A DNA stretch of 64,000 nt, taken from Leucoraja ocellata (taxonomy: Eukaryota). Below the pieces are notes generated by a model that was not told the origin of the DNA, searched no databases, and saw nothing but the letters and a program-made list of their open reading frames with translations. How positions within the stretch are numbered: position 1 is the first letter of the stretch; the number at the start of each line of letters is the position of its first letter. The position numbers and the translations under genes are program-made. Positions 22,269-49,420 of this stretch are shown here, piece by piece. Location of the stretch: positions 2,604,001 through 2,668,000 of the forward strand of contig JAWMAR010000082.1 in assembly GCA_036785375.1 (NCBI GenBank). The letters are read 5' to 3'.

Positions 22269-22473
22269 ATTTCATTGAAGACAGACACTAAGCAGCTCCT
22301 TGGTTCTGGGTATTAAACACCATCTAAGTCAACAGGGTTTGGAAACCAGTGAGACGTTGCATATGCTCTTCCCACTGTTTATATTTGCTGCCATTCAAAA
22401 GATTTCTCGAGGAGAATTCTCACTCCTTTGTTTGCCACGAGGAGGGTTCTCAGGAATCTTTTCACTATTCCAC

Positions 22474-24752: not shown

Positions 24753-24797
24753 AGAGATGAGAACGCACTCTCCCTGAAATGTAAAAACAATGCGACA

Positions 24798-24880
24798 GAC
24801 ATAGAAACATAGAAAATAGGTGCAGGAGGAGATCATTGGCCATTCGAGCCTGCACACCGCCATTCATTGTGATCATGGCT
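24798..24880 (-). mobile_element. CR1 LINE extreme 3' tail
   Basis: ACATAGAAACATAGAAAATAGGTGCAGGAGG...GTGATCATGGCT. Confidence 0.75.
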
Positions 24881-27010: not shown

Positions 27011-27024
27011 AAGAAGAGTTACAA

Positions 27025-27207
27025 ACTAAACACAAAGTGCAGGAGTAACTCAGCGAGTCAAGTAGCATCTGCGGAGGGAATGGATGGGTGAAGTTTCGGG
27101 TCTGTGGATAGGTCCCAAACCGAATGTCGCCTATCAATTCTCTCCACAGATTCTGTCTGACCCGCTGTGTTTTGCTTAAGATTCCAGCATCTGCTTTTCT
27201 TTGCATC
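27025..27207. mobile_element. Older fold-back Penelope-terminus element
   Basis: ACACAAAGTGCAGGAGTAACTCAGC...TTTCGGGTC / GGTCCCAAACCGAATGTC...CCAGCATCTGC. Confidence 0.6.
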
Positions 27208-30200
27208 TCAGGAATTACAAACTGCTTTCTTCCCACTTTTAATGTACATAATGTGTAGAATAACTGATAAATGTGGACTCGGAATCTAACGTTCTGTACT
27301 CTCAGGATATGGGAAGAGATAAAACTCCACACAATAACAACCTAAATCACCATGTGTTGCAAATATTGGTTCATTTCACCGTTCTTACATTTGAGATCTA
27401 CTGTGTAGACCGTCTGATTTCAAGCAACAGATTTAGACTGAACAGTAATTGAATTAATCTAAAATGATTAATCTATCCGCAGATAGCACACAATCCATGA
27501 AGGCTAATTCAGTGTTATTTGGAGTGAAACCATCAAACCGCACGTGAAAATAGGAAATGGATGAAAATATTTTAGAAGCTATGGACTAAACAATCGAAGG
27601 ACAGATGTTACTAAAAAATTATTTTCTATTTTACTTACTTGATCTACTCGAGAGTGTGAACTTTATCAAAGGGAATGAGATAGGACGGAGTATTTTGGAT
27701 AGCAGCAAATTATGGTCTGTATATCTTAAACCACTTGAAAAACAATGACGCAACAATAGTACTTTTCTCACGACACAGGAGTGGGGAAAACTGCAGAAAA
27801 ACCTATCAAGTGTGCAACAGCCAGAATAATTCTGATACTAAAACTAAGTCAACAGCAGTTACTGATATACACTAATTCAGAAACATCTACAATTATTATA
27901 AAATTATTACCAATTACAAATAAAAAGTGATAAATCTACAACACAAGAAAATGGTGTTTTGAATCTTTTTTTTTGCAATGATATTCAATAAATAACTTAA
28001 CATTCACTTAAAATAAGCCCATCAAACATGATTGCTGAAGGTGGGATCACAGCACCATTCAAGCACATGGAGCCCAGCTGCCTTAAACGTTTACTAAATA
28101 ACAGCAACGACAGTTAGAGGGAGCTTTATATCTGACTGCTGTACCTGACTGTGGAGTGATTCAGGGGTATCCAATGTGGCAAAACTGTTCCCTTTCTCGC
28201 CAATGAGATTCCTCATCTTGTTGAGCAGAAAATATGCAAGGGGCAAATGAAAATACAGAGATCAGGGCTAAGAGATTACAGAAAGCAAATCAAACACAGC
28301 AATATTGACCAGACACCAAGCTTAATCAATAAGACACACTGTGTCAGTGCCGTGAACTCCTAATTAAAATATAAGCTCCCCTCGTTTTTTTAAACCGGCC
28401 ATATTCCTTCATTTAATAACCCAGGAACATTCCTTTTGGACCAGACCCAGATGCAGCTTGGTCGCCCGCTGGACCTTTTCATACCTACAGCTGCTCAGGT
28501 CCTCAGGAACAAGTCAGGTCATCTGTCTGCGTAATTGATAACACCACACGATGAGACAGGTTGCCTACATAAAGTAGGCTGGTGAAAGGGCAGACTTACT
28601 TATTTGAATCCAAATCCAACAATACTGCAGCCTAACTTCAGGTGATGTAATTAATTGCCTTTTTTATTAACATAGTTATCAGATCAATTATCTCCATGTG
28701 CTTCTGGGAAAAACCTTCAGCCCCTTTTCCCACCAGCGGGAGAACACTACTGAGGCCTAACACAAACATAGCTCAGTTACAGTGCTTTTGACTTGGCTTA
28801 TAAAACTAAATTAGAAACTCGTGTTGAATTTTATCCTGGGATTTAAGCCACAGAGGAGAAGCTCTGTTCGAACACTACTGCAGTTTACTTAAGTCCACCA
28901 ACTGCCTCCCTCAACTGTGTTTCTTTTGGCCAAAACTTTGACTTCTTTTCAGCAATAGCCATCGAGCTCAGATATACATAAACTTGTAACTCTTTCAGCA
29001 CTTTAGTCCTGCGATCAACACAGAAATAACGCGAACATATTCAATGGGAGATGAATGCAAGCTGTCAAAAGCACCGATTTCTCTCTTTGCAGCGAAGCAG
29101 TGAGATATACCATTAACACATCAATCCTCTCGCATCTTGCACTTTGCACCAAGCCAAGGTTACTCAGAGGAACTCAATGTCACATCATTAAAGTACTTCT
29201 CTATGTCTCAAGCCTGCCCTTTCTTCCTCTGGATTATATGTAAAGTAGCTTTAGTTGCTGACAATCTCTCCTGTTGTTCAGTCTCTGAGGTGTTGCTCAA
29301 TAAACACAGTTTTACACATGAGCTTTGAGAGGTCGCATCATCCAGCAGGTTATAAAAATCACAGGCAAGTTCAATCCTTCTCATTTTTGACACACAAACC
29401 GCCAGCCACATGTCTGTCAGTGGACATCAATCTGATGAGAACAGAGGCTGATTATTGTTTCCAACCGGTTCTACAAGATGGCATCAATTGTATATCACCA
29501 TCAATGTGTTAACAAAGAGCAAAAACAGAACCCAGGATGTTTCTGGCAAACTCATTGCATAAAATCACTCCACCATTAGTCCGTGGTGGGTCTGCTCATG
29601 AGGGTTATAATTAGATATGGCTTTGGATCCTACACTTCAATGATTTTAAGACTCAGGATGCTTAGACATCATTGAGCAGCTGGTCAGCAAAAGCTTCTCA
29701 CGCCCGCTGCTCAATACACAGTGAACACAAGCTACAGACTTCCCTTACCCTGGGCACAAAGTGAATAACTAACCAACTCACGAAACAGAGCAGACCGCAC
29801 TTGTGGGACAATAGTAACCTCAGTATGGCAGCCGAACAGAGGACCAAAACTCTCTGCTTTTAATCTTCACGAAAACAGGTTTACTGAAACCTAAAGCAAT
29901 CTACAGTTTGCATCACACTGGACTTGTTGGTGATTAGAAGTCTTTTTTTTTCAACCCACTATCAGTACCTGCAGCCAAGCTGAAAGCAGATGCTGGGACC
30001 TTTGCCAAAAACAAACCTCTCAAAAGTAGTAAGATTAATCATTTGCAAACGGCATGGATGGTAACAAAACAAATTAATAAAAAGGAAGAAAAATGTGCCT
30101 CTTATTCAAACCAGATGACACAAAGTATAGTCTTTTCAATAATCTAAACCCAAAGTCATATAAACTTTTGACCCTTTGCAAAACATAAACACAATAAAGA

Positions 30201-30536
30201 CATATCAGATTGCTGATTTTTCTCAGTTGCATGACGAATTTTTTAAAAAGTGACCTCCTTGCCAGCTAATGAATAAACAGACAGATTATTTTTAAATGAG
30301 TCCATCGGGCAATAAGTTTCTGGAAAAAGTGTGTACGCAGCCAAGTTTACTCAGATTTCACCAGCTCCTTGTAAAAGGAAGTCTGTGCCCAATCCCAATT
30401 TGCTCATCAATTAGTTCAGCTCGAGAGAAGAGGGAGTCAGTAGGCTAAGCCTGTGGAAGATAGTCCACAATCAGCTTCTCCAATGGTTCCAGTTTGTGAT
30501 TCCTTTAAGCAGACTGCATTCTAAACAGAACTCTTA

Positions 30537-30774
30537 AGGGCCTGTTCCACTTTCACGACCTAATTCACGACCTCAGCCGAGTTTGCCCTTGACTCATACT
30601 CGCAGCATGGTCGTCACGAGGTCGTAAGCGGTCGTAGGTAGGTCATAGTAGGCCGTGATGCTAGTCGTAGGTAGTCGTGGCATCAAGTAGGTCGGGGCGT
30701 TTTTTCTAGCCTGATGCAAAGTGTCCACAAGTAAAAAAGGTCGTGAATTAGGTCATGAAAGTGGGACAGGCCCT
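30537..30774. mobile_element. PIF/Harbinger-type MITE (related to 16177 copy)
   Basis: ~36-bp TIR AGGGCCTGTTCCACTTTCACGACCTAATTCACGACC. TTA TSD. Shares GACTCATACT.GCAGCATGGTCG with the 16177 element. Confidence 0.88.
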
Positions 30775-30919
30775 TTAGAGCAGCAGAACATAGAGGAAAG
30801 AAGGACTAAGAGGGCACGACCTGATGTGGAGCCATTGAGTTGAGCAGCACTGTGTGATCTCTGCCAATGGACTACAATGTAAACTTCATGGAACACATAC
30901 GAGTCAGATATATAACCAG

Positions 30920-31180
30920 AGGACATGGGTTTAAGGTGATGGGGAAAAGATTTAATAGGAACCTGAAGGGCAACTTTGTTTTTACACAAAGTGAGGTAGG
31001 TGCACTGAGGAGTTAGTTGAGGCAGGTACTATCACAATTTTTCAAAAAACATTTGGACAGGTGCAGGGATAGGGATCAAATGTGGGCCAAACACAAGCAG
31101 GTGGGACTAATGTAGATGGGGCATGTTGGTTGGCGTGGGCAACTTGGGCCGGAGGGCCTGTTTCCACAATGTATGATTCT
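30920..31180 (+). mobile_element. CR1 LINE 3' fragment
   Basis: GAGGACATGGGTTTAAGGTGA...TTTTTACACAAAG...GGGCCTGTTTCCACAATGTATGATTCTA. Confidence 0.8.
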
Positions 31181-32204
31181 AGGACCATAACATTTGAATA
31201 TGTGGAAAAATAATAACCCCTGTCAGCTGTCTGCTGCAATAATTTATATACTTAGCATGGAAGGAGCGTGCAAAACCCTCTACAGTTCCAACACCATTTC
31301 TATTTTGAGCATTTGTGGAAGAGTTTAGAAACAGGTGTTATATCTGTGCTAAGCAGAGTCCCATTATGGCCCTGAATAGTTGTGAATTGGGGCAAATCAG
31401 CCTTGATAGTCTTGAATGGTGGGACAGGTTTGAGGTGCCAGGATGGCCGCCTACTCCTGATGCTGCTCCCTTGTGGCCACCTGAGGTCCAGCAGATATTT
31501 TGGGGAAACTTCATCAACAAAGAGATTAGAATGTCTGACAACACCATGACTGAAATGAGCCCAATGGGACTAGACCATGGTAGTATTGAGTCACACTTTG
31601 ACCAATGCAGTATGGACAAAATTATTATTACCCATATAAGTGCTAATTCAGTTTTGCCCAATTTTACTTCACTTGTGGCCTGTGAGTTCATTGATCCTTT
31701 CGCTAAGGAATGTCTAATAGTGATTTATTATATACTCTGCCAGAGAGCAAAAGTTGAAATAATTACATTTGTATTGCTTTGCATTGCTTAACGATGGAGG
31801 CACAAATCTGTGTTTGCTTTTCTTGATCTAGGTTTCATTATAAACACTTCATAATCTTCAGATTAATTATCATATCAGGATTGTGATTCACAGCTCATTG
31901 GAGTATACCAAAGTACACAAGAATTATCACATTGAATGTGTATATATATTTTTCTGCGTTTCTTAAAAATTCTTGTTTCCACCGCATGTCAAAATGCCTC
32001 CTTGACGACCACTGCATTTCCTTCCCAAGAGCCCTTGCCAAAACAATGACCTTTTATTTCACCTCCATGCCACCCACCATGGAATTCTGCCCGAACCCGT
32101 GTGAAAACACCCAAACTGGGAAAAATTGCAAATATTTGCTCAGGTAAAACTCCAGTAAACCCTCATTTAGTGGACCCCTTTGTAACGGGCTTGAGTTATA
32201 GCGG

Positions 32205-32625
32205 ATGGACCTGCCGAGGTCTGGTTGATGCGGTTGTTTTATGCGGCTCACGTTGTAGCCCCTTGCACTTTCTTTGAGCCGCCACTACCGATAAGACACG
32301 CTCACTCACTCACTCACCGTGGGGATTCCTCCCCTCTCATGTCCTGCCGCTTCTTTCTGTTGGCCATCGCTATGTCCACTCGGCCTCCACCGTTCTCCCC
32401 GGGATGCCAACATGCTCCGCCTTTGACGATGTCGGCGATTGCGGGGGAGAAGGAGGAGTCGGCAGCGGGGGAACGGACAAAGCGATGGGTGAGAGGGTAG
32501 ACACCACGGTGACCGAGTGCGTCCTGTCGGTAGCGGCAGCCTGAAGAACACACATTCTGTCGGGGGCGACAACGTGAGCAGCTGCAACAGCTGCGCCAAC
32601 TGGTGCAGACCTGCAGCATCGGCGT
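32205..32625. mobile_element. CpG-rich imperfect palindromic element (MITE-like)
   Basis: Nested inverted matches: AGGTCTG/CAGACCT, GCTCACGTTGTAGCCCC/GGGGCGACAACGTGAGC, CTACCGA/TCGGTAG, CACCGTGG/CCACGGTG. Confidence 0.6.
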
Positions 32626-32639
32626 CTAGTTTTAAGGTG

Positions 32640-32790
32640 AAATGACACAAAGTGCTGGAGTAACTCAGCAGATTGAATCAGTCTGGAGAAGGATCTCAAG
32701 GTCACCTATCCATGTTCTCCAGATATGACCCACTGAGTTATTCCAGCACTTTGTGTCCTTTTGTGTATTAACCATGATCTGCAGCTGTTT
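32640..32790. mobile_element. Fold-back Penelope-terminus element (degenerate)
   Basis: GACACAAAGTGCTGGAGTAACTCAG inverted with CTGAGTTATTCCAGCACTTTGTGTC. Contains the GATTGAATCAGTCTG pivot. Confidence 0.7.
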
Positions 32791-33169
32791 GTTTCAACTA
32801 CATACAATGATAATACCTTACTTGGTTGTAGCGGACAATCTGGTGAATGGACACCATTGCCCCCCCCCCCCATGGTCCATTATAAAGAGGGTTAGTGCAT
32901 TTAAGACAAAAGGTCAGAGATCTGTAACAGAGCCTTCAAACAAATCATTCATCCCTCTTTTTCCTGGAGCTACAGAAGATAAAGGGCCTGTCTGTGTTTA
33001 CTTCGTTATAGCTGATATATCTCCATATTTGGTTGCAACGTGGAAGGATTGACCCATTGGGTCTTTGCCAGTTTATAGCAAGAACCCATTCCTCCCCAAC
33101 TTCCCCTGTAACCTATTCTCTCCATATATTCTCATCAAAAGCCTCCCCCTTCAAACTTGGGATAATCTA

Positions 33170-33325
33170 CAGTTGCCAATTAACCTAACGACCCATGTGT
33201 CCATGGTAGCAAACAAATACAGCTGGGGACGCACACAGGGTCACAGAGAGAACATGCAAACTCCACATAGACAGCACTGGAGGTCAAGATTGTATTCTGA
33301 TTCATAGGGGTTGTGCCACTGTGCG
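33170..33325 (-). mobile_element. Degenerate V-SINE
   Basis: CCAATTAACCTA...GAGAACATGCAAACTCCACATAGACAGCAC. Confidence 0.65.
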
Positions 33326-33386
33326 CATTTACAATCTTGCAATTGCAATTTTGCTTCTTTTACTTCATGCCTGTTCTTCCCAGTTA

Positions 33387-33970
33387 CATAGAAACATAGA
33401 AAATAGGTGCAGGAGGAGGCTTCGAGCCAGCACCGCCATTCACTGTGATCATGGCTGATCGTCCCCAATCAACAACCCTTGCCTGCCTCCCCATATCCCT
33501 TGACTCCATTAGCCCCTAGAGCTCTATCTAACTCTCTCTTAAATCCATCCAGTGATTTGGCCTCCACTGCCCTCTGTGGCAGGGAATTCCATAAATTCAC
33601 AACTCTCTGGGCGAAAAGGTTTTTTCTCACCTCAGTCTTAAATGACCTCCCCTTTATTCTAAGACTGTGGCCCCTGGTTCTGGACTCGCCCAACATTGGG
33701 AATATTTTTCCTGCATCTAGCATGTCCAGTCCTTTTAATAATTTATTTGTTTCTATAAGATTCCCCCTCATTCTTCTAAATTCCAGTGAATACAAGCCTA
33801 GTCTTTTCAATCTTTCCTCATATGACAGTCCCGCCAACCCAGGGATCAATCTCATGAACCTACGCTGCACTGCCTCAATCACAAGGATGTCCTTCCTCAA
33901 ATTAGGAGACCAAAACTGTACACAATAATCTAGATATGGTCTCACCAGAGCCCTATACAACTGCAGAAGA
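33387..33970 (-). mobile_element. CR1-clade LINE (HER1-like) 3' fragment, young
   Basis: Open 163-aa ORF YRALVRPYLDYCVQFWSP...LEFRRMRGNLIE...RVVNLWNSLP. (TTCTATGT) tail. Confidence 0.93.
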
Positions 33971-34088
33971 AATTGTTCAATGCTAACTGTCTGGTGATTT
34001 TGTACCCCAAGTTTCTATTGTGAGAACATCTAGATTGCACACAGAACACTGTCATGTCACATTAAATGCCAGAGTGAGGAATATTACA

Positions 34089-34390
34089 GGGATGGTACAG
34101 TGGTGCAGCAATAGAGTTGTTGCACAGCTCCAGAGACCCAGGTTCGATCCTGACTACGGGTGCTGTCTGTACGGAGTTGGCACATTCTCCCTGTGACCGT
34201 GTGTGTTTTCTCCGTGCTGTCTGATTTCCCAGCATATTCCAAAGACGTCCTGGTTTGTAGGTTAATTGGCTTCTGTAAATTGTCCCTAGTTTTGTGGCTT
34301 AGAGCTAGTGTACAGATGATCAGTGCTCAGCATGGTCTCGGTGGGTCGAAGGGACTGTTTCCATGATGTATCTCTAACTAAGCTAAACCA
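34089..34390 (+). mobile_element. V-SINE (HE1-like), full length
   Basis: Same head, V-domain and tail as the 15858 copy. Confidence 0.88.
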
Positions 34391-35012
34391 AGACTGGCAC
34401 AGACATTACAAAACATCTAGGAAATTGGTACCTAGGTCGGGATCTTTCTGATGAAAGGTCTCAGAATGGAAATGCAACTGCCCCCACCACCGCGCGCGCA
34501 CACCCACACACACGCGCGCTCTGCCTGAGCTCCTGTGTTTTATTTAGCTTTTATTTCAGATGTCTAGGATCTGCAGTTTTTTAATGTTTATTTACTACCA
34601 TACATGTTGAAACTCTTTTACCCTGTGCTGCTGGAACAGATTGAAGTTTGCAATTTGGATGACAGATGGCCCAGATAAGGCACCAAATCTTTAATTATCT
34701 CTCCAGTAATGATGTTTTAATGACTCTTATGATCAACAATGCCTGGAAATTAATTTTGATGTCCAAAATCTTTTCAGAATTTATGGCCACATCTTAGAAA
34801 ATCTGCTAACAAATCTCAATATGACTGCAATCTATTTATGGGGCTCGTTTGTCATTAATGTTTTAATACTTGGCATTTTAACATGTACTGCAATTAACTT
34901 TTGCAGCAATAAAATTTGCATTAGATCAATTTAGATTTATATTAAAAAATTAGAATTGTTTTACTTCGGGTGTATTGGAGAAAAACCATAGTGGCTGATC
35001 TATATGGAAGAT

Positions 35013-35104
35013 AAGTCTCAACCCGAAACGTCACCCATTCCTTCTCTCCAGAGATGCTGCCTGCCCCACTGAGATACTCCAGCATTTTGTGTCTATATAG
35101 TCTA
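35013..35104 (+). mobile_element. Monomeric Penelope-terminus short element (5' truncated)
   Basis: 12-bp TSD TATATGGAAGAT at 35001-35012 and 35105-35116. Confidence 0.75.
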
Positions 35105-35391
35105 TATATGGAAGATGCATACACCTAGTTTGTCTATATGCTCAGTTATAACAAATCCAGACCAACAAACAATTAGCCACTGTTAGAAGCATCTAATTAA
35201 ATGCATCATTTCTATTAATAAGTAAACTCCTTGTACTTAGATGTAGTTTAGGAATTTCCATTTCCAATTATTTAACGTAGGTTTAGTGTAATTGATATGA
35301 TTTAATTTGGAGGATTGTTTTTAAAAAAGAGCTTGATATAAACAGAACCAAAGATGCCAGTTTCTAGCAAAACAATATGCGTCCATTATAA

Positions 35392-35490
35392 TCTGAAGAC
35401 GGGTCTCGAGCTGAAATGTCACCTATCCTTGATCTCTAGAGATGCTCCATGACCCAGAGTTACTCCAGCATTTTGTGTCTTTCTTTGGTA
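35392..35490 (+). mobile_element. Monomeric Penelope-terminus short element
   Basis: CTGAAGACGGGTCTCGAGCTGAAATGTCACC...GAGTTACTCCAGCATTTTGTGTCT. Confidence 0.7.
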
Positions 35491-36674
35491 AAGTTGTCCG
35501 TTGTGGAATTGTTATTCCATTATGATCTGTCTGAAATATTAACTGCAAAGTAGGTAATCAGCTCAATATTACGGTAATAGCATTTACTAAAAGGACTGAA
35601 CAATGTAAAATTGCTTCCCAAGGCTGGAAGGTCACCGCAATATTAACTCTATTCTCTCCTCACAAACGTTACCTGACCTATGATTTCTTCCAGCATTTTC
35701 TGTTTTTACATTAAATTGCTTTCAATTGCGTGCTATCATGAACTATTTAGCTGCTCGCTCTCTACGACTGGGACGAACATTCGGAAAGGCTTTTTGTCTT
35801 TGTTGGAAAAGGCCATCATTATTAAAATGTCTTTGACAAACCTTTTGTTGTTCGGGACGCAGAAGGACCTATCAACTTTGCGGAAGGAAGGGGCTTACAG
35901 ATGAATATTTCTTGCCACCTCTCACATTCGTATTTATTAGCAGAATACGAACTATAATGAATATTATTAATGAATACTTGGGAATCCTTGGAAAAGAAAA
36001 GGCAAGCTGCGACTTTGCTGTTCCTCATGCTTTGTGGTCAGGTAGCCATTTTAATTTTGCAGCAGTCCTCCGCACAGGAGCTGATTCAGGCCCACACATA
36101 TAAGCATTGCTGTTTAAATGGAATACACAAAACTGTCCCAAAATGTCAGGAGAATAAAGTACATTTGGGAGGATGATCAAATTTTACATAAGATACAAAT
36201 GAATCCTGCACATAATAAATGATATTTTACAAATCCCTTCAGTCGCCTTTTTTTTCTGTTATTCTAATTACTTATTTTTCTGAAATAAACTGCTTTTATC
36301 CTAAATTTTCAAAACTTAACAACACAGCATAAAGCAGGCATTATTTGTCTACCATTGCTCATAATGTCAGTGCTACCAATGCAGCGTGTCATTACAGCTC
36401 CAAACTGGCGTTCACCAGCCAGAAATTACTATTCATCCTGACCTTGAGACAATTCCAACATTATGACATGCTGTATAAAGAGCTGGAAACACTGTCTGGA
36501 TGCCATTCAGTTTGCCCAGGAATGCCAAAATGATTTTGTTCTTGTACTCCTAGCCAAGTTCATAATTCCATTATGGAGCCTGCCAGAATAAAGGAACTGA
36601 TATCAGAATCCCACGTACTACAAAATGCAGAACTTGAACTGTTGAGATTTGCACATTTACTGTGAGAAGCACAG

Positions 36675-36850
36675 GGAGGGCACAGTGGAACTGCAGGCGG
36701 TGCAGACATCTCACAGCTCCAGCGACCCACATGTCGGGTGGAGTTTGCACGTTCTCCTGATGACACTGAGGGTTTCCTCTGCGTGCTTCGGTGTCTTCCT
36801 GTGTCCCAGAGAGGTGCTGGCTGATGTGTGAATTATCCGTTGTAAATTGA
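36675..36850 (+). mobile_element. Degenerate V-SINE
   Basis: GGGCACAGTGG..CTCACAGCTCCAGCGACC..GGAGTTTGCACGTTCTCC. Confidence 0.65.
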
Positions 36851-36899
36851 TCTTATTGCTGGTGAGCAGTAGGCAAATACGTCCCATGTTAAAGTCAGA

Positions 36900-37415
36900 G
36901 TTTTGAGTCATACGGCACAGAAAAAAATTCTTCAGCCGTTCACATCCACACCAATCATTGAGTACTCATCTATATTGATCCCATTTTCCAGTAACTGGCC
37001 TGTAGCTTTCTGGACCTTGGTGATTCAAGTACTGGTCAAGATAGTTCTTAAATGTTGTGGGAGTCTACACCTCCCTCTCCCTCTCTCCGCTCCCTACTCA
37101 GACAATGTGTTCCAGGTTCCAAATCCCCTCTGGTTTTATTTACTACTGTTATGGGTAAAGGTCTCGTACTTCCTGCCATATCAGGGGGCACTTCAAGCAT
37201 TTAGTGTACCTCAATCAGATGTCCAACTCTTTCCTCCCCCCACCTCCTCCCAGCCTTATCACTTCCAAGGGGAACAATCCCAGCTTTCTACTCTTTCCTC
37301 ATAAATGATATACTCCATCTTGGTGTTTCCCCTCCGCACCCTCTCCTGTAATCATGTTATTCCATTAAGTGTGGTGATCAGAAGTGCACACTGTACTCTG
37401 GCTGTTATCTAACCA
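36900..37415 (-). mobile_element. Old CR1 3' fragment
   Basis: TTCCAGGTTCCAAATCCCCTCTGG, AACAATCCCAGC, GTGGTGATCAGAAGTGCACACTGTACTC (YCVQFWSP-like on minus). Confidence 0.55.
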
Positions 37416-37560
37416 CCTGTGCATACAAGGTTACAGGGCAAGTGCTGAAAAATGGCATTAGTGTGGAAGGCTAAATAATGGTCAACATGGGAATGGTGAG
37501 TCAAAGGACTGTTTCAGTGGAGCGGTATTGATATTGTCACATAGCAAGTTCACTATTACA

Positions 37561-37831
37561 TAAGCTACACCCCAGCGGTATGAACATTGACCTCCAATTT
37601 CAGGTAGTCCCTGCTTTCTCCTTCTTTCCCCTCCCCTTCCCAGCTCTCCCACAGCCCACTGTGTCTGCCTCTTCCTTTCTTCTTCCTACCCCCCCCCCCC
37701 CACATCAGTCTGAAGAAGGGTCTTGACCCGAAACGTCGTCTAGTTCATTCGCTCCATAGATGCTGCCTCACCCGCTGAGTTTCTCCAGCATTTTTGTCTA
37801 CCTGCGATTTTCCAGCATCTGCAGTTCCTTC
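37561..37831 (+). mobile_element. Penelope-like 3' end with intact hammerhead-like core
   Basis: Starts LHPSGMNID-like coding. CTGAAGAAGGGTCTTGACCCGAAACGTC at 37710-37737. TAAGCTACA duplicated at 37561-69 and 37832-40. Confidence 0.75.
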
Positions 37832-38823
37832 TAAGCTACAGTCTGTTCAGTTGGCTTCAAATGACTAATAATAGCTATAGACCTTGCTGAGTACATTTCA
37901 GACAGAAATAAGGTCAGTGTATGGATAATGTGCACCATTGGGGCCCTTATGACAGAAATTGATATAGCAACCAAAGTTTCGCCCTCTAAATCATGTGGCA
38001 CATTGTTGGTGATTGCCCACTCACTGGATTCACTACTGCATGTAAAGTGTACAGCCACAGTGGATGTTTTTGCAATTTGGCAGATTGAATGAGCCGTCAG
38101 CTAGTGATGCAGAAACGACAGAGGGGACGCTCCACGAACACTGACCTCATTATTAAATGTAAAATACTTTATAACATTAGGAAACAAGCAGCTCATTTAT
38201 TTTGGTCAAAGACCTTTCTCATAACATTAATCTGGTTCTTTTGTTTTAAAGCTCTGAGGAAGAGCTGAGGAATTAGTCATGTCTTAAGGGAAAAGCCGTC
38301 CCCAACCAGCATACAGTGTTGTAGGGGAAATCCAGCTGCATAACTCTCCGAGTTTCATTTGCATCTAAACTTGCATTAGTGCAGAGTCTTTAGATACAGT
38401 CAGGTGCAGACACCAAAAAAACACACACAGAAAAGGTGTGGCTGCAATGGTGTTAAAGAGCTAAATTCACGTAGCAGATTAGCGCCAGAGGCATGTGCAA
38501 GGTTAGGTTCTAGCTGCGGACGTAATTATCTGCCTTGCCAACAGTCATCTACAGTTGTCTCACACAAAGTATGGATACACACCTGCATGTTCATCCCATC
38601 ACATTCAGGATGTGTATGCAATCGCTCCAAAGGTCAGAAACTAAAAAACGCATGACATGGTGCTGGGTGCCACCCCGTCTTGCATCATGTTGCACCCCTT
38701 ATTTTAGGCACTGTTTGGGAGCTCTAAAGATCCACCATGTAAATTGTAGGTGCCATTGAATCTGGGCTGTGCAAATTGTAAATGAAAGTGTAAAACCTTA
38801 ACATGACTGGAAATCTTGAAATG

Positions 38824-39002
38824 AAGGAAATAGGCAACGTTTCGGGTCGAGACCCTTCTTCAGACTGAATCAGTCTGAAGAAGAGTCTTGACCCGAAACG
38901 TTGTCTATTTCTTTCGCTCCATAGATGCTGCCTCACCTGCTGAGTTTCTCCAGCATTTTTGTCTACCTTCGATTTTCCAGCATCTGCTGTTCCTTCTTAA
39001 AC
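38824..39002. mobile_element. Fold-back element with two head-to-head hammerhead-like cores
   Basis: Arms 38823-38868 and 38870-38915 pivot at CAGACTGA-A-TCAGTCTG. 15-bp TSD GGAAATCTT(G/A)AAATG at 38809-38823 and 39003-39017. Confidence 0.85.
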
Positions 39003-39074
39003 GGAAATCTTAAAATGTACAGTTCTCATTAATACCAGCGAGCAAAATTATTATTTTGTGGATATACATCATGG

Positions 39075-39367
39075 AAACATATCCGGCAACCCACCCAGTC
39101 CACACCATCAATCACCCGTTCACACTAGTTATATGTTATCTTACTTTCTCATCTACTCCCTACACATTATGGGCATTTATTTTTACAGAAGCCAATTTAC
39201 CTCCAAACCAGCGCATCTTTGGGATGAGAGGGGAAACCGGAGCATCAGGATGAAACCAGAGCGATCACAGGAAAAACGTGCAAACTCCATATAGGTAGCA
39301 CCCAAGGTCAGGATCAAACCCGGGTCTCTGCCACTGTGAGTCTACCACTGGCAACGGGGTGCTGCCC
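39075..39367 (-). mobile_element. V-SINE
   Basis: GTGCAAACTCCATATAG...GGATCAAACCCGGGTCTCTG...GTGCTGCCC. Confidence 0.8.
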
Positions 39368-40491
39368 TTGACAAATTTGTGAAACAAACCCGTCCCAGCA
39401 GGTTTGGTGGAAGTAGGTGGAGAGGATAGGGTGTGGAAGGATGCCATTTCAAGAGGAGTCTGATTTGTGAGTTTCAGAATGTGGCTCATGGCAACGCGAG
39501 CCGATTCAAAAGGGAAAGAAAATCACATGTTGGCAGACTCTCAGTCTCCCATAGTTTGAAATATTGCAAAGTGTCTGGTTATTTGGATTCATCTTGAAGA
39601 TGACTGCAGCCTATATCCTCAGAGAAAGAATGACATCAACGTGTTCTGTTTATTAATACAATAAAATGCCTTACATAACAAATTAAATAAGCATGTGACC
39701 TTGCTTAAAAAGAAATGCCTAGAAAAGTAGGTTGATTGCATAATCTGCCTCATACAAACCTTGCACTTGCCAGAAATCACTGGGGTGCTGGGAGGTCAAA
39801 TCAGTATTTTGCTAACATCTTTTTGCCAAATCTATTCTCCAGTATTATAATGAGTACTTAGTTACTTTGCCAACGCCAGATTCATAGTGACTCGTTGCGT
39901 ACTTTGTGCATCGTATGCAAAGACAACGAATTTCACTGTACCTGGGTACATGTGACAATAGAGTATCTTTGAATTGATACAGTGTGCAAGAAATTATTCA
40001 GCGCCTTGCTTTTTAAAATAGTTCAAAACCTATGGGGCCAGAGGATAAACTGGTTAAAGCAGATGGGATTCTTCACTTCTATGTCTCAGTCAATGAAACC
40101 AAGAGCAGGGAAGTCACATTGGAACTGTAAGAACTAGTAGTTAGGCCGCAGGTAAAATGCTGTGTACTGCTCTGATCATTCTGTAGGAGTATGACAGTCC
40201 TTGGCATCCAAGTAACAATTGACTGAGTGCACCATTGAGTAGCCTCAGCATATTTAATGTTCCTGACAACTAGAAGCCTTCACTGGCTGGAGTCGTACTG
40301 TTCGGACAGGACAATGGTTGTTGTAGGAGGACAATTGGCACAGGCAGGCTGGAGGGGCACAGTTGTACAGTTTGTAAAGATGCCATTTCACTATATCATT
40401 GATCCAAGTTCAATCCTGACATTGAAGTGGATTTCTCCAGCTGCTCCAGATTCCTCCCACATCCCAAACACGTGCAGATTGGTAGGCTACT

Positions 40492-40762
40492 TGTGTAAGA
40501 AGGAGCTGCAGATGCTGGTTTACACCAAAGATAGACACAAAATGTTGGATAAACTCATTGGGTCTTTCCTTAATCTTCGGTGCTAGCTTTGACTTGTCCT
40601 TTTCATTCCTTTAATTAAATTAGTTCTTTGTACATTTTCATACCACTAGTTTCCCTCTCCCTGACTCTCAGTCAGCAGGGTTTCGACCCGAAACGTCACC
40701 CATTCCTTCTCTCCAGAGGTGCTGCCTGACCCGCTGAGTTACTCCAGCATTTTGTGTCTATC
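40492..40762. mobile_element. Fold-back Penelope-terminus element nested in a V-SINE
   Basis: Inverted terminal arms with an internal Penelope UTR piece like 14170-14260. TTGGTAG on both flanks. Confidence 0.7.
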
Positions 40763-41114
40763 TTTGGTAGATTAAATGCCTCTCATGAATAAAATCTGGA
40801 GGTGGATGTGCATATAGAAAGAAACAGCCTCAGGGAAGTGGGTTGGGGATCAATCTGGGAGCTGGCTATAAACTCGCTGAAATGGCCACCTTATATGTTA
40901 TAGAGAAAATATGGTAATGATCTCAGTCCAAGCATAATGTTGCATGGCTTCCTCAGGCCCTCGCCATCTGCTCCTTCATCAATGACCTCCTCTCCAAGCG
41001 GCACACAATTCAATTCCATCTACTTTTCCTCATATATTAAATCACCTCTGCATGTTTGTGGCAAGATTGGACAACATTAATGCTTTGTGGCGAGTAACAA
41101 ACGTGCTACAAATG

Positions 41115-41260
41115 TTCTGGTTTGTAGGCTAATTGGCTTGTTAAAATTGTAAATTGTTCAGAGTGTTTGTAGGATAGTGTTAGTATGTCGGGATCTTGGT
41201 CGGTGCGGACTCGTTGGGCCAAAGGGCCTGTTTCCGCCCTGTATTTCTAAACTAAACTAA
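41115..41260 (+). mobile_element. V-SINE 3' half
   Basis: GTTTGTAGGCTAATTGGC...GGGCCTGTTTCCGCCCTGTATTTCTAAACTAAACTAAAC. Confidence 0.8.
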
Positions 41261-42829
41261 ACACAGCATTGCCAGGTAAGGGCCAGCACCAACACATAGT
41301 AGGACCATCTCCCTTTGGCATTCAATAGAATAACATCACCAAATCTCCCGCCCACCACTGAAATTCTGGGGGTGAGGTGGCGGAGTGGAATCATCACTGA
41401 TCAAAAGATTGACAGGGTCAGAAATAGAAACACTGTGGCTATAAGAGCAGGGCAAAGACCAGGTATTCCTAGGGATTTATCTGCTGATTACCAAAAGCAT
41501 TTCTGCTGTCTAGAGAGCGCAAATCAGTAGTGGGATGGAATAACCTTCTGGACGCAACTCCAACGCTTGACGTCATCCATTATAATAACAACCCATTCAA
41601 TCAGCACTGTATCCACCACCTTGAGCATTCACTCCCAGCTCACTGTGGTAGCAGCATGCACCGTCTACAAAATGCAGAGTACTGACTTATCAAAATATCT
41701 TATGTAGAATTTGGAAAACTTGACCCCTACCACAAGAAGAACAAGGTCAGCATGCACAAACCTCCATAATCGCAATCGCAAAGTTTATCACCAAGTCACA
41801 CAACATCCTGACCTCGAAACAAATTACCATGCGTCCATATCAATGGGCCACCATTTAGCGTGGTAGAGTTCTACGGCACAATAAGCAGCCTTTGGGCCCA
41901 ACGCACCGTGTTAACTAGGATGTCTTTCTGAGCTAGTCCCACTCGACAGCACTTGGCCCATAACACTGCCCTATCCATGAGCTTGTCTAAATGCCTTTTA
42001 AAAGTCATAATTATACCCAGATGCTGCCTACTCGCTGAGTTCCTCCAGCAGGTTGCTTTTTTTGCTCAAGATTCCAGCAACTGCAGTTTCATGTCTCTCC
42101 TATCGTTCATTGCTATGTGCAAGATGTAAATCATTACACCAAGTATGATTATTTTATTATTATTGGCAAGAATAAGATATGGTTCTTTCTCCATCAACAG
42201 TCATTAAAGAACATTCATTCTTTCAGGACCAAAAAAGAAAAAAAAAATCAGCTTTATCCATGTAAAGCTACGAAAATTCAGGATAAATGGCCTGGGTATT
42301 GGACAGCTACCTAACAAACAGCTTTAGTGCTCCAAACTGTGTTACATTCGAACAGGCCTTTCAAGAAAGTGGTCATTGGTTTCCATGAGTCATGGTCATA
42401 GAGTGAAGAAAATGATCCATTTGATGCAATAAAAATGCCCTGTTAATGAACCTTGCCTGTGATGGTAAAGTCAGTCATATTAGGTCACTATCACTGTGGC
42501 AATATGACTGTGGCTTTCTGCAGCAACTTGCAGCAATGATGTGTGAGAGACAGTAAAGAGCCCCACATTCTGACCCCGTCACTTGCTTTGTGGTTTCTGT
42601 TGAAAGGGGTTTGAGAAAAAAAAATCTGTGCTGTGGAATCATTAGAGTGCAAAACCTGGTCAGTACTCAACCGCGGACATTTACGAGAGCATTACAGCTG
42701 TAAATAAAGCAAGTAGCATATTCAAAGTCAAAGGCATGGTAAAGAGTTGGAGGAGGAAAGAAAACTATATATTAGACAATCTGGGAAATATATCCCTTTT
42801 GTTGTCAATTAATAGTCATAAACCCATGA

Positions 42830-43210
42830 GATTTTATTTGGAGGAGATCAAGATGAATGATGTGGAGTAGAGCAGTGGATGCTGTCTACATGGATTTTTG
42901 TAAGGCATTTAACAAGGGCCTTCATTGTAGGCTGATGCAGAAGGTTAAGATGCAATAATAGAAGACAGAAGATAGCAGTCGAAGGGGGTTATTCTGGCTG
43001 TAAACCTGTGACCTCTGATGTCCCGCAGGTTTTCAGTGTTGGGACTTGTGTTGCTTGTGATACTAAAACATTGGTGGGGTGGTTAGCAAGTTTGCAAGAA
43101 ACACAAACAGTTGTGGATTTGCAAACAATGAAGAAGGCTGTCAAATGATATAGATCAGTGACAGATAAGCGCAAAAAACTATCAGTTTAATCTGAGCACG
43201 CATGAGGAAC
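42830..43210 (+). mobile_element. Old CR1 RT fragment
   Basis: AVDAVYMDFCKAFNK-like coding and CCTGTGACCTCTGATGTCCCGCAGG (VTSGVPQG-like). Confidence 0.65.
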
Positions 43211-43654
43211 TTAAATCCACAGATTTAAACAATCTATTTTTAGATTGTTCTAACAAGCCGTTCCAATGAAGGACATTATTTCTGAAAGCTTAACTGTTTC
43301 TCTTTCAATGTTATCTGACCAGCTGAATGTTTCAAGCATTTTCTGTCTTTATTTCAGATTTCCAGCCTATGCATTTTTTTTTAATTTTCATTATGCATGG
43401 ATTTTGTTTTCCCCCAAAGTTGTACAATTCACTTGATTGTCACTCTGCAAATGATAAAGGACACGGATAGATTACAAAATGCAGCAAAATTCATTTAAGG
43501 GAGACCTATCTTAAAACAAGCTGTAAAGTGACCTTCAGAATGTACTCCACCGCTGCCACTAAATGTTGTGACACTAAGAGCTGTCTAAAAAAGACATGAG
43601 GCCGAGGAAGGGGCTCACTGCCCACAAAACCCTACATTCAGTGGTCTTCACTCG

Positions 43655-43750
43655 TTTGAAGAAGGGTCTCGACCCAAAACATCACCCATTCCTTCTCTCC
43701 AGAGATGCTGCCTGTCCCGCTGTGTTACTCCAGTTTTTTGTGTCTATCTT
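43655..43750 (+). mobile_element. Monomeric Penelope-terminus short element
   Basis: TTGAAGAAGGGTCTCGACCCAAAACATCACC...GTGTCTATCT. ATTCAGTG on both flanks. Confidence 0.75.
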
Positions 43751-45397
43751 GTATTCAGTGAGGTGTGTATGTCAGGTGGTGCATGCCAGGATTGTTGCTT
43801 GTGTAGGAGGCACCATAGAGAGAACTTGTTTGATTAGTCACATCAACCCACAACAAAAACCCTATTACTACCATTAGGACTGGTCACACCTCAATATCTA
43901 CAGTCACCACATTCATGACAAATGCCATTGTGCTCCAGTTACTTGTTCGAAATTATGGAGTACATTGGCCCTCAGGAAACTTGAAACATTTAAAATTTAT
44001 AACTTGTTTACTGCTTTGAGCAGATGTTGCTGGCAACCAGGAGCCTTGACAGAATCTGGATTAGAGATGTTCCAGTTAGGAAAAGTTGGCAATGGTCACT
44101 GGTTTTAAATCCTATTATCTTTGACCATAAAACCAAGCTCAGCCATAAAATGCACCTGGAAGATACAAATTTTCCTGCACGCAGTATGTTGGAAGTGAAT
44201 CGCAGGATAAGTTTCTCATCCTCAACTTCACATGCCTATATGTCTCTTTAATTTTTATACAAATTAATCCGCTTGCTACTTTGTTTGTAGTACCTATGGT
44301 GTCTCGTTGTTCCCCAACCCCACTCCCAGGTCAAGATCAGGAAATTATTTTTGTCTTAGAATCCAGCTAAACACTTTGTAAAATACCTTGAATAATAAGA
44401 AATTCCTGGCAATTAATCACCTTTAAACCTAAACATTGCCCTTTACCACCTCATTCTCAGCAGCCAATGGCACAAGAAGAGTGAAGGTTTCAATTATTAC
44501 TACAAATGATGACCAAACTGAATCTTGCAGGTAAATGTCAGCAGCTTCATGCTATTTATCCCCCTCAATGCAAGCAAGTTCAGGATTCATGCTTACTTAC
44601 TTACATCCGCGTGTGGAATCCCGAACTTGCTGACAGATTGCCGCTGGGTGAATTCTGCCTTATGCTCTGACACCAGTCTCCACATGAAGGCAGAACACAA
44701 ACTTGATGCGAGTCCCCTACACTTAGACTGGGAATCTGTTTAAGGATCCTGTGCCAGGATTTATCCGAGACCCCATTCATTGCCGTGGCGATGTTACAAC
44801 TGTATGGAACATGACAGACTATAACGCATGTTATCTATTATTTTTTATCTCAGTAGTATTGCCTTGATTATTTTGGCATTCTTAATCTTACTAATAATTT
44901 TCTAGTTAAAATTATTTAGCTCATTATTTAACAGATTTTGAAAGCATCCCAGAAGCTTTGCAGATTTGACAGATGGCTGATCAGCGGGGGGTGAGCATAG
45001 CAATCTGTCAAATTTTCCCCAGCAGTCAGTGGGTGGGCTTGCTCCGAGCCAACCATGTGACCCTGTTATGGCCTTTGACCTTGTTGATTAGGTCCAGGTT
45101 GCCCTCCACCAGCAAGTTCATCCTTATGGATGTGAACCAAATAAGTTCGGAGCGACGGGGAATCTGAGTGATGAACAGGGATCAGACCTTGTTTAGTGCG
45201 TTGGGTTAATATGGAACTAATCGTCATTTACTTACATCACACTTTTGACATTCTATTACTTGTCAACAAAAAACAAACAAAAAAAGACAAGAAAATTCTG
45301 CATTCTGAAGGATCTCTCATCAATAAAATCTTCTACAAGGATTTTATTTTTGTAAATTTGAATGCTGGCAATAGTTGATCCCGTTGGTCTTCAATAA

Positions 45398-45483
45398 TAG
45401 ACACAGAATGCTGGAGTAACTCAGCGGGACAGGCAGTATCTCTGGAGAAAAGGAATGGGTGACGTTTTGGGTCGAGACCCTTT
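45398..45483 (-). mobile_element. Monomeric Penelope-terminus short element
   Basis: Reverse copy. TTCAATAA at 45390-97 and 45484-91. Confidence 0.75.
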
Positions 45484-46027
45484 TTCAATAAGATTTATAT
45501 CCACATAATTCAGCATTATTGAAACAATTCTGTTCATATCCCTCATCCGAGTGCCAAGATTATTTGGAGATCCATTGTTGCAAACCACATTGGTAAATCA
45601 CTGTTCCAATGATAACAACGTCTGTTTATATTTAACATCTATGCGTTGGCCACAATTTTCATCTGATCACTATGTAAGCAACAACAAGCTTCATAACAAA
45701 TGTACTTCCCCAGTCTACACATGTACAGGCAGTTTTCATTTTAAACGCTTAAACGTTCTGCTTGATTTGGATTAAACAGTGACCATTATCCACCATTATC
45801 TACTAAATGCCACAGTTTCCTTCACTATTTTGCCTCCTAATCCTGTACCTCTTCAGTATTCACTTTTGTATTGTACCATCACTTCTTTTGTTTAACCCCT
45901 CCTGCATTGCATCCTTTTACATACTGTACCTTCCTCTTTGTTTTATCCCCCATTTCCTTTGCAGCAAAACATTTTTGTTCCATCATTAACTTTTTCTAGT
46001 TCTAATGGAAAGTTATTGAACTGAAAT

Positions 46028-46178
46028 GTTTAGTTTAGTTTAGTTTTAGTTTAGAGGTACAGTGCGGAAACAGGCCCTTCGGCCCCGACCAGCGATCCCC
46101 GCATATTAACACTATTCTACACCCACTAGGGACAATTTTTATATTTACCAAGCCAATTAACCTACAAACGTACATCTT
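46028..46178 (-). mobile_element. V-SINE 3' half
   Basis: (GTTTA)n tail, GGAAACAGGCCCTTCGGCCC, CCAATTAACCTACAAAC. Confidence 0.82.
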
Positions 46179-46534
46179 TGCATTAACTTGGTCACTCTCC
46201 TCTCTGCTGCAGCATAATCTGTTAAGTATTTCCAGCATTTTGTATTTTCATTTAATCCAAACCAGAGCAGTCTCATTATTGTCGTAAATATAGGATTCTT
46301 ATTCTTCAGAGACAGCTAGCTGTAGGCCAAGCAGATTCAACCCTTGTGTCAAGGCCAATACTCAGCAAATGCTTTATGGTTGACGACAGTAACGGGAGGA
46401 TTTTAGTGAAATGTATGTATGGTATCATAAGCCTTAATCTTGAGCAAGGTCTGCAGTGACACTGAAGTGAATTACATTGTCTCGAGAGATGGTTCAAGGC
46501 TCATTCAGCAACATTTATGATGCCAGATGCTTGA

Positions 46535-47200
46535 ATCATAGAGAATCTATGATACCGAAAGAGGCCATTTTTTCAGGCAGCTGTGGCTATGCAGATTAGA
46601 AAAGAGCAACTATCATCCTAATTCCACCTGCCAGAACAGAGTTTATAGAACAGGCTAGTGTCATGATTGTTCTTGCCTTTTTACCCTTCTGGGCAGAGAG
46701 TTTTAGACCAATACTGCCCTCTGCATGACATTGTTTTCTTATCTGCCTTCCACCTATTATTTATGGTCACTGGCTTGGCTCCTTCTGTCCTCCAGGCCCT
46801 ACAAATCTCTCCTATGCATCCCCTGCTGCAAAGAAAACAGTACTACAATCCAGGTAATATCCTCACAACCCTCATTTGCATCCTCTCTCATTCTAAGATA
46901 TCTTTCTGCCAGGAGCGATCAGATCATCTATTGTTCAAGCTGTGGCCCAATGGGTGGTGTTTACAATTCTTGCACAACCTCGCTGTTTTAATGTTCTATG
47001 TCCCATCTGAAATGAAAGCATCATGTTTGCCTTTTTAACCATCTTATTGACCAGTTCTGCCACCTTTAAAGATCTCTGGATATAAACTCCAAGGTCCTTT
47101 TATTTGCCCTCTCCACTCATTTCTTGCTTGCTGTATTTTCCTGAATGCTTTATCTCACATTCTCTAGTTTAATTTCCATTTGCTACTTTGCCCAATAGAT
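46535..47200 (-). mobile_element. Old CR1 3' fragment
   Basis: CATAGAGAATCTATG..GAAAGAGGCCATT tail, CAATCCAGGTAATATCCTCACAACCCTC. Confidence 0.5.
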
Positions 47201-49334
47201 TCCTTAATGTCAACCACAGCGATAATTGTTGTCCCATTAATAAACTGCTTTTATTATGCCCCATATTTAAGTTTTAAATTCTTGGCTCCAAGCACTTAAA
47301 ATATTCCTGCATTAATGCTGCTCCTTCAAAGTGCTCATCAGCAAAATCAGGATTTTTAAATTACATGCAGAATCAACCTTGCTAAGTCCGACTTTCTAAA
47401 GTTTCAAGTGGAATCCAAAATCGCTGTGTTCATGTTCTTCCCACTGAAGGTTTCTGAATGTGTCTGGATTATTGCCAGTGGTAACAGACATGATGAAGGT
47501 TGTTCTTCACTAGTAGGGATACACAACAAGGAGCAGCAGCTCCTTCCTTCAGACCTGAGCTACTTGAATACTTCACGCTGCTGCTGAGTATAAAGCAGCA
47601 GAAACCGTGGCTGACAGCAGGCAGTCTGCCCACGCTGCTGATGTGTGACACAATAGGAGAGAACAAAGTTGAAATATGCAAATAGACAGGCGCAGGATAC
47701 AAAATGCAAATACTTACTAAGTCCCAACTGCATCAAATGCAGAAAAGATTTGGAGTTGAACCCACAGGCGTCACCTGGATGATATCTAAAACCATAGCTG
47801 ATTAAGGAACAAAGACACACTCTTCACTGCAGCGACTATCCACGTTCTGAATTATTTCATATCTCAGCGATCATCTGTCCAAAATGACTCATGTATGCAA
47901 AGAACACCATGTCAAAAAAAGAATCAGGCACACATCAACACTGAACCAGAAGAAGCATGTTACACCAGTGAAAGCAATTGATGGAGAGATACTGACATGA
48001 AAAGTGTTGGAAATCAAAGGCGCGATCTTCCATTCACCAGCGTAATATTCCTTGTGGCTAAACCCTTTGTGCTTCAATATCAATAAAAACACAGAAAAAA
48101 AAATGTGTGATAGGTATAAGATTCAAATGGTTAGAAAGCACTCAAAGCTACAATCAGCATAGCTCTCGGGCTAAAATGAGAGAGATGAGAGATCTCTCAG
48201 TGAGGGATCAGTAGCTGTCACTGTTCTACACTTGGGTATCTTTACACAGCCATAGCTTGACCAGCTTCCCCCATACCTTCAGATCAGCCTGGGTCACTGG
48301 TGTCACTGCAGACAAATGAGGTTGGGGAAGTACTTGCAGCAATGTAGCTTTACTTAGAACCACAACAGTAACCCACATTGATATTAGTGACACAAAGGCA
48401 AATTCCTGTAGTGGTGAAAATCTGAAATACAAACAAGAAAATTCTTAAAAGCACTTAACTGGAAGATTTACAGGTCTTAATCATGCCCACAGAACAATGT
48501 TGTACGTCTTAGCCTTCATTGTAAGTGTGGTCAAAGGAGGACAGTTGAGAAGCACTCAGTGTTGAATGTTTGTATGTCTCTCGGTTCCTTCCATACCTGC
48601 TCTCAATGCTAAGCCCAGCGACGGAATAGTGCTGGGGAAAAGGTCAGGATGTTCTCTGCACTAAGCTTTACTAGAGAGGGCTGGTGCAGCAATATTGGCT
48701 TCCTCCAATATTTTGGATCTATTTTTGACTATTTTCCTTCTTTACATACCCCTTTTAGTACAGTTGGGTGCGTAGGTCTGATTGACCAGCCCACCACATC
48801 TGGCAGATGTGCAGCGGGTATAAGTGTTGGTGTCAATGAATCAGTGCAGGAGGTGCGAGCCAGCCCATGGGTGGGGTCATAAATTATTCATCATTCCTGA
48901 TGAGAAGTTACTTCTGCTTCTTTCTTTACAGATGCTGCCTGACTTACTGTGTAACCACAATTGGTGAAGGTTTTTAATGTTTGCTGCTGGCAACTTAAAA
49001 TAATTGCCATGTCATGAGTTTTGTGAAAGACTATTGTGCATGAATTTACTTTAACTTATTACATAGTTATATTCAGAGATGAGACGTGCAGTGCTGGAGA
49101 GGAATTTTATAGCCCAAGGAATGAGTTGGGCAAGATGCTAAAATATATAACGTTAATAAAATATTAAAACATATTCCTGAGCCAGGAGCATTTTGGGAAT
49201 GTTGGTATTTTGTGAAAGGTTTGTGCACCTTGTGATTTTATATGTTCTAGCACCAGCCAGCTGAGTTCACCATGCATCGGGATGACTGACTGATGCGCTG
49301 CAGTGCCCGGGGAGAAGGTAATTTCACTTGCATG

Positions 49335-49420
49335 CTCCCCTCTCCCATCAGGCAGAAGATACAAAAGCCTGAAAGCACTTAACACCAAATTCAGGAACAG
49401 CTTCTTCCCCACTGTCAGAA
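49335..49420 (+). mobile_element. Rex1/Babar-type LINE C-terminal fragment
   Basis: PLPSGRRYKSLKALNTKFRNSFFPTV. Confidence 0.7.

Follow-up and report, generated by a model that had tools for sequence, protein, structure and literature searches.

Penelope-like elements (PLEs) typically form units that a single TSD encloses, with an inverted, 5'-truncated pLTR and with a tail of 30-40 bp on just one of the arms (PMC3846280, PMC8557442), and the latter paper names the formation of these inverted repeats as unsolved. Their pLTRs carry minimal type I hammerhead motifs, and PMC4209133, in its accessible part, also describes pairs of such motifs on opposite strands, 100-700 bp apart, in metazoan PLEs. 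Related to these are the non-LTR retrozymes, short non-coding repeats that derive from PLEs, contain a type I hammerhead and stand head-to-tail, with at least two complete motifs on one strand (bioRxiv 10.64898/2026.07.22.740005, excerpts; this preprint and the accessible part of PMC6155905 serve as background only). Biochemically the closest system is PAc, the PLE protein of an anole (Poseidon of Anolis), which in the available sections of PMC11167929 nicks and extends both target strands in vitro and starts reverse transcription at two sites bounding the tail; a dimeric form of the protein is predicted. Here we compare with these systems a fold-back in a 64,000-nucleotide stretch of Leucoraja ocellata DNA (the window), together with its relatives across the genome.

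A Penelope-like fold-back in an intron of FAM53B

The target hairpin is an ordinary PLE remnant of ~180 bases, without an ORF, in a FAM53B intron, and as a unit it is the 3' end of a PLE, made of a tail-bearing pLTR fragment and an inverted partial copy of 46 nt. The original prediction had placed ~46-bp inverted arms around a pivot at 38869 and one 15-bp TSD around the whole, and both are borne out: the arms (38823-38868 and 38870-38915) are 46 nt each, 91% complementary and 1 nt apart, and a direct repeat of 15 bp, alike at 14/15 positions, encloses the unit (38809-38823 and 39003-39017). Its features are as follows, in window coordinates and with element +1 as the first C of the core.

13651..59869, minus strand: host intron between the last two FAM53B coding exons (tblastn, boundaries approximate)
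38809..38823, plus strand: left copy of the TSD, 15 bp, its last base common to TSD and left arm
38823..38868, minus strand: short inverted pLTR arm, -5 to +41, 100% identical to the A1 subfamily consensus
38836..38863, minus strand: minimal type I hammerhead-like core in the FAM53B pre-mRNA sense (anatomy compared with the accessible part of PMC4209133)
38869, plus strand: pivot base, -6 of the long arm, at a blunt junction with the spacer absent
38869..39002, plus strand: long pLTR arm, -6 to +128 including the tail, 95.5% identical to the A1 consensus
38875..38902, plus strand: second core, damaged (stem II GAGU/ACCC with an A-C mismatch), antisense to FAM53B
38970..39002, plus strand: PLE tail, ~33 bp, beyond the tail-less end of other copies (median +94)
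39003..39017, plus strand: right copy of the TSD, 15 bp with one mismatch (direct-repeat comparison)

Insertion as a single event, as had been proposed, is supported by the one TSD, the blunt junction and the A1 identity of both arms. The unit is asymmetric, its right arm extending to 39002 (134 nt including the tail) and its left arm ending after 46 nt; the sequence of the short arm falls wholly within that of the long arm, and the pivot is symmetric. Minus-strand RNA of the target folds at -94.1 kcal/mol (z -9.3), far beyond chance. A double variant in the long arm was at one point taken to mark a separate sub-lineage, and with it two source RNAs, and this was dropped, as the exact 38-mer that carries it occurs at just 5 places in the genome.

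Pfam assigns the exon at 59855-60658 to FAM53, and a skate FAM53B matches it at 99% identity; this protein maps by tblastn to minus-strand exons at 60655-59870 and 13650-13297. As the target lies between these two minus-strand exons, it is intronic and its minus-strand core has the sense of the pre-mRNA. In a sequencing run with another organism label (X20) a contig spans the left flank and all of the short arm (36 differences in 566 bases), which indicates an insertion that is shared and not of recent date. Runs X15, X16, X18 and X20 showed no empty site, with right-junction contigs that reach just 22-26 bases into the element and so stay below the 31-letter threshold, and two RNA runs (other organism label) gave zero reads on the target flank. 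The same intron holds a decayed LINE-like copy with endonuclease and RT-like frames (22328-24743, plus strand), as well as a MITE-like structure outside the PLE family at 30531-30780, with 43-nt inverted arms 164 nt apart. At G000:C394 two near-identical FAM53 exon matches lie ~465 kb apart on opposite strands, either a duplication or an assembly artefact.

The parent element and its described relatives

Upstream of the repeat, longer genomic copies have an ORF that carries RT motifs and a CxxxxCxxC linker and ends in GIY-YIG. Pfam matches on this parent ORF are weak (RVT_1, E 0.0027; GIY-YIG, E 0.0011), both below the Pfam cut-offs, and a Pfam search with the decayed ORF of one further copy (L026) gave no match; database homologues of the parent ORF are annotated with both RVT_1 and GIY-YIG. 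As judged from its sequence, the target repeat is the pLTR of an endonuclease-bearing (EN+) PLE, because the same pLTR follows an ORF with RT and GIY-YIG domains and the homologues carry both. The parent is probably of the Neptune type, given the CxxxxCxxC linker motif, which would place it with Neptune as opposed to Nematis.

Similar to the EN+ PLE units in the accessible parts of PMC3846280 and PMC8557442, the target has a head-to-head pLTR with an inverted 5'-truncated copy, a tail on one arm, a single TSD and a pLTR hammerhead motif, and its fold-back layout is already published there. Unlike those units as described, however, it is trimmed to 180 bp without an ORF, and its second arm ends at +41, with the usual tail-less site not used; its TSD is 15 bp vs 8-10 bp in the rotifer PLE examples of the text available. 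With the retrozymes of bioRxiv 10.64898/2026.07.22.740005 it has in common, as far as the excerpts go, that it is a short non-coding PLE-derived repeat with a type I hammerhead, but its arms are head-to-head and its two cores lie on opposite strands, not head-to-tail on one strand. A more retrozyme-like arrangement was seen at another locus, L092:8969-9355, where three A2 pLTR units of ~130 bp each stand head-to-tail; at the junction AGGU precedes the core, so that helix I would reach 4 bp and one strand would hold two cores.

Fold-backs are abundant and have two classes of outer end

A sample of 140 arbitrary 10-kb stretches of large contigs (1.4 Mb) held 661 pLTR arms in six working subfamilies, and neighbours within 30 bp of each other were head-to-head in 100 cases vs 13 tail-to-tail. 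From 127 head-to-head pairs within 200 bp we kept 92 fold-backs, which had their junction within 30 bp, both arms of at least 30 nt and a position away from the stretch ends. This density of ~66 per Mb leads to an estimate of ~200,000 fold-backs genome-wide, if the sample is typical.

Within the window, fold-back architecture usually pivoting at or near the core had been reported at seven other sites. Six are indeed head-to-head pairs, and at 53270 there is a single arm with its partner absent within 900 bp; as to the pivots, the arms at 5000 start downstream of the core (+32/+34) and at 40492 one arm starts at +66 while the other reaches -108. The recurrence of the target pivot at 32675 stood up, as GAATCAGTCTG is present there inside CAGATTGA-A-TCAGTCTG, with 16/17 bases as in the target pivot. 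A solo pLTR fragment at 13886-13998 (minus strand), flanked by the 9-bp repeat GAATATTGA, sits inside the endonuclease end of a PLE copy at 13860-14389 (plus strand); it resembles a fold-back and is a nested insertion. Elsewhere, two loci have an extra antisense piece of the element between their arms (L181:6625-6788 and L186:3201-3406), which suggests repeated template switches, and a duplicated locus (L008 / L010, on G000:C2122 and G000:C34) has a short arm that likewise ends at +41, preceded as at the target by a 15-bp TSD ending in AAATG, with a pivot that differs from that of the target.

Two classes of outer end can be told apart, one tailed (+128 to +131) and one tail-less (median +94). 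Of 198 solo copies, 93 are tailed and 87 tail-less, nearly even numbers, and tail-less solos stop at the same position as tail-less arms of fold-backs (median +94, KS p 0.56). Fold-backs preferentially combine the two classes: 56/92 pair a tailed with a tail-less arm vs 34 expected, and tails on both arms occur in 4/92 vs 16.5 expected, with a minimum of 9 in 5000 shuffles. A TSD was detected around 36/92 fold-backs, the other 56 being below threshold, vs 0.7% of shuffled flank pairs, and each of the 36 TSD-flanked fold-backs carries one tail and no more; the partner arm is tail-less in 32 and shorter in 4, the class to which the target belongs. We also assembled a set with the commonest pivot, consisting of the first 90 listed loci less 10 with duplicated flanks; a TSD (median 15 bp) was present at 56 of these 80 loci, of which 54 have one tail, 2 none and 0 two. 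TSDs are commoner around fold-backs (36/92) than around solos (26/173), and this excess may mean that many solos form with deletion of target DNA or by loss of one cDNA.

The pivot is a truncation hot spot and not a fixed site

The original prediction had pivots clustering at a fixed site, and of this the clustering is real and the single fixed pivot is not. Inner ends at -8 to +1 make up 35% of 179 fold-back arm ends and 50% of 144 solo ends, and since the hot spot just 5' of the core is common to solo copies it is a general 5'-truncation hot spot, not one specific to fold-backs. Against one fixed pivot, the inner end of one arm shows no correlation with that of its partner at the same locus (rho -0.08, n=56), and only 18/92 fold-backs are symmetric, vs 11.5 expected by permutation (p 0.02). 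Symmetric pivots were found in 6/12 tail-plus-short loci vs 5/56 tail-plus-tail-less loci (p 0.003), a difference that the 30-nt arm filter favours. Junctions among the 92 comprise 33 with an overlap of at least 2 bases, 23 near blunt and 36 with extra bases. The commonest exact pivot, on the native palindrome TCAG-T-CTGA, occurs at 1,683 places and target-like pivots at 114, and the exact 23-nt target pivot has only 2 occurrences in the 3.44-Gb genome. At the commonest pivot (TCAG-N-CTGA) 35/71 loci owe their centre base to the tail arm, and where outer ends are unequal, 36/76 loci have arms that each hold sequence absent from the other, 13 of these 36 inside a TSD.

In the window (37704-37832 and upstream) and in the consensus, a pyrimidine tract plus CAG ends at -2, right at the place of most 5' truncations, and looks like a splice acceptor; in the accessible text of PMC4209133 an intron of the D. 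virilis PLE ends at helix I. A search for a shared spliced leader or upstream exon found no common sequence upstream of 88 copies truncated near -1.

A probable origin from two primed cDNAs joined head to head

On balance we favour reading the target as a single 5'-truncated PLE insertion, likely made by priming from both target ends on RNA of one source, followed by head-to-head joining of the two cDNAs. Of dual priming and joining, our favoured reading, we infer the joining step and its use at the target. A staggered target cut of ~15 bases would leave two 3' ends, each of which could prime reverse transcription; one would prime at the tail end of the element RNA (+128 to +131), and the other usually at the tail-less site (~+94) and sometimes further in, as at +41 in the target. 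Both cDNAs would tend to halt just 5' of the hammerhead core and would then join bluntly, as at the target, or anneal via small palindromes, chiefly TCAG-N-CTGA, with host repair filling the remaining gaps and the two hammerhead cores being carried along as passengers. The two classes of outer end, the one-tail rule, the mutually unique arms and the random centre base would all follow from dual priming and joining; in particular, annealing of two cDNA ends across a single mismatch would put the centre base on the tail arm in about half of the loci, and where both arms hold unique sequence neither can be a copy of the other.

Similar to PAc, whose two start sites bound the tail (PMC11167929, accessible sections), the skate elements have two outer-end classes that match such sites, although PAc belongs to a different PLE clade and the available text of that paper links no two-strand extension to inverted copies. 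Literature searches, mostly of open texts, found no published dual-priming account of PLE inversions.

A precedent exists in the 5' inversions of L1 (twin priming), in which both target ends prime on the RNA, microhomology joins the cDNAs and one TSD encloses the product. L1 inversions mostly span non-overlapping parts of the RNA, whereas the PLE arms here usually overlap and the second primer mostly acts at a fixed site ~35 nt inside the first. Several observations count against dual priming: at the target, the nested short arm and symmetric pivot also fit copying from the long arm; symmetric pivots are slightly in excess overall and more so in tail-plus-short loci; among the commonest-pivot loci two are TSD-flanked without a tail on either arm; and 56/92 sampled fold-backs have no TSD above the threshold.

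The foremost alternative, which we consider unlikely though well short of negligible, is snap-back priming, where one cDNA or antisense RNA would fold at a mini-palindrome near the core and copy itself, an endonuclease or early termination would set the second end, and later deletions of the centre would produce the asymmetric copies. The literature explains PLE inversions by self-priming on an antisense template (PMC3846280), and the nested and symmetric target, the 1,683 exact copies of a pivot on the native TCAG-T-CTGA palindrome, and the variants that arms have in common (4 strictly private in 47 A2 loci vs ~0.2 expected from parallel mutation) all agree with snap-back. However, one hairpin predicts that the centre base always comes from the same arm class, contrary to the 35/71 seen, many loci have mutually unique arms, and the second arm ends where solo copies begin. 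The hairpin-primed second-strand synthesis of the original prediction is possible at the target, where the short arm is nested, but as a general route it needs extra deletions, given the unique arms and the centre-base count. Palindromes do lose their centres after birth, so symmetric products could turn asymmetric, and slippage between TCAG-N-CTGA copies could randomise the centre base. A snap-back origin of the tail-plus-short loci in particular was suggested by 5/5 in the first 30 loci and was not replicated in 60 further (6 vs 5).

The hammerhead-like cores

Each arm had been said to hold a hammerhead-like core, that on the minus strand being intact, in the sense of the FAM53B pre-mRNA and masked by its own antisense arm. 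Both cores are present, with matches to the CTGAAGA..GAAAC motif at 38839-38863 (minus) and 38875-38899 (plus), but the plus core is damaged by its A-C mismatch in stem II. The claims for the minus core hold, both in its anatomy and, with the exons on the minus strand, in its sense: it consists of CUGAAGA, a bulged A, a 4-bp stem II (GGGU/ACCC), GAAA, a palindromic ACGU that replaces helix III and a GUU triplet, and so has the core bases, stem II, NUH triplet and palindromic step of a minimal type I hammerhead, with a predicted scissile bond at 38836/38835. Similar to the PLE hammerheads in the accessible part of PMC4209133, it shows the conserved core, the bulged base before stem II, the G10.1-C11.1 pair and the palindromic 15.2-16.2 step with helix III absent; unlike them it has a stem II of 4 bp and a helix I of just 2 bp (U-G, G-C), short of the ~4-5 bp for minimal type I. 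A D. virilis PLE variant with a 2-bp helix I does appear in the same text.

In its sequence context the minus core is predicted to be paired to the antisense arm over almost all of its bases, with a stem II probability near zero, which supports the proposed masking and suggests that in FAM53B pre-mRNA the intact core would be locked in a 46-bp duplex. Self-cleavage of the target cores appears unlikely, because neither has a helix III, full masking of both is predicted and they occupy opposite strands, so that they never share one RNA as a dimer. An Rfam scan of the 64-kb window at E up to 1 returned six weak matches and no hammerhead, and the miRNA-like Rfam matches in the window mostly fall on other fold-backs.

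Co-option of the hairpin, or of its intact core, to act on FAM53B RNA by cleavage, editing or small RNA would draw on the intact, pre-mRNA-sense core and on an insertion that, from the X20 contig bridging the left junction and the whole short arm, is not recent, and yet we regard it as very improbable. The core is without helix III, has the 2-bp helix I and a predicted stem II probability near zero in context; single minimal PLE hammerheads failed to cleave in vitro (PMC4209133, accessible part); 13/92 sampled fold-backs likewise have a whole core on both arms; and at ~5% divergence a 46-nt arm without any departure from the consensus is no great surprise. Ribozyme cleavage as the maker of 5' ends was also rejected, with 8/179 fold-back arm ends and 2/144 solo ends at +27 to +29, near the predicted cleavage at +28/+29. 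The small bump of fold-back inner ends at these positions is weak, with multiple tests uncorrected.

Fold-backs are made anew at each locus

Each fold-back is made anew from one source, since its arms share subfamily and variants and are closer within than between loci. Both arms belong to one subfamily at 70/92 loci vs 21.6 expected, 52 non-consensus bases are shared between arms vs 22.9 expected (72 loci with enough overlap), and for A2 the per-site difference between arms is 0.022 at one locus vs 0.039 across loci. The original prediction of per-locus synthesis, with arms sharing private mutations, is supported across the sample; at the target the test is uninformative, as the short arm equals the consensus and has zero private variants in common with the long arm.

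The other route that had been put forward, propagation of a palindromic master element or RNA copied many times with its pivot, is already largely refuted and hardly credible to us. Its one attraction is a pivot exact at 1,683 places, but the 80 commonest-pivot loci span five subfamilies (A1, A2, B1, B2 and C) with concordant arms, the A2 arms are closer within than between loci, the orientation of the centre is mixed within one sub-lineage (L218, L221), and the 23-nt pivot of the target occurs just twice in the genome. The fixed pivot and ends and the separate left and right lineages of an autonomous palindromic element were not found. Two independent back-to-back insertions, which the density of the family (661 arms in 1.4 Mb) and the 10/92 sampled pairs with arms of different groups would allow, are likewise scarcely tenable at the target, where two A1 arms meet bluntly inside one 15-bp TSD; 0.7% of shuffled flank pairs reach the TSD threshold.

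Implications

We are evenly divided on a broader proposal, that PLE insertion is intrinsically double-ended: a dimeric RT-endonuclease would prime both target ends at two fixed RNA sites ~35 nt apart, every event would start with one tailed and one tail-less cDNA, and fold-backs would be cases where both cDNAs survive and solos those where one is lost. If so, the tail on one arm only of all PLEs would follow from it, and the genome, as a natural experiment, would supersede the published account by self-priming. For this fish, the high density of fold-backs implies many intronic double-stranded hairpins, which matter for repeat annotation and for false miRNA calls. The target locus itself is ordinary, and the population counts are a modestly useful clue to an open step of PLE transposition, in that the one-tail rule, the equal solo classes and the random centre base make a concrete prediction for the existing in vitro PLE system.
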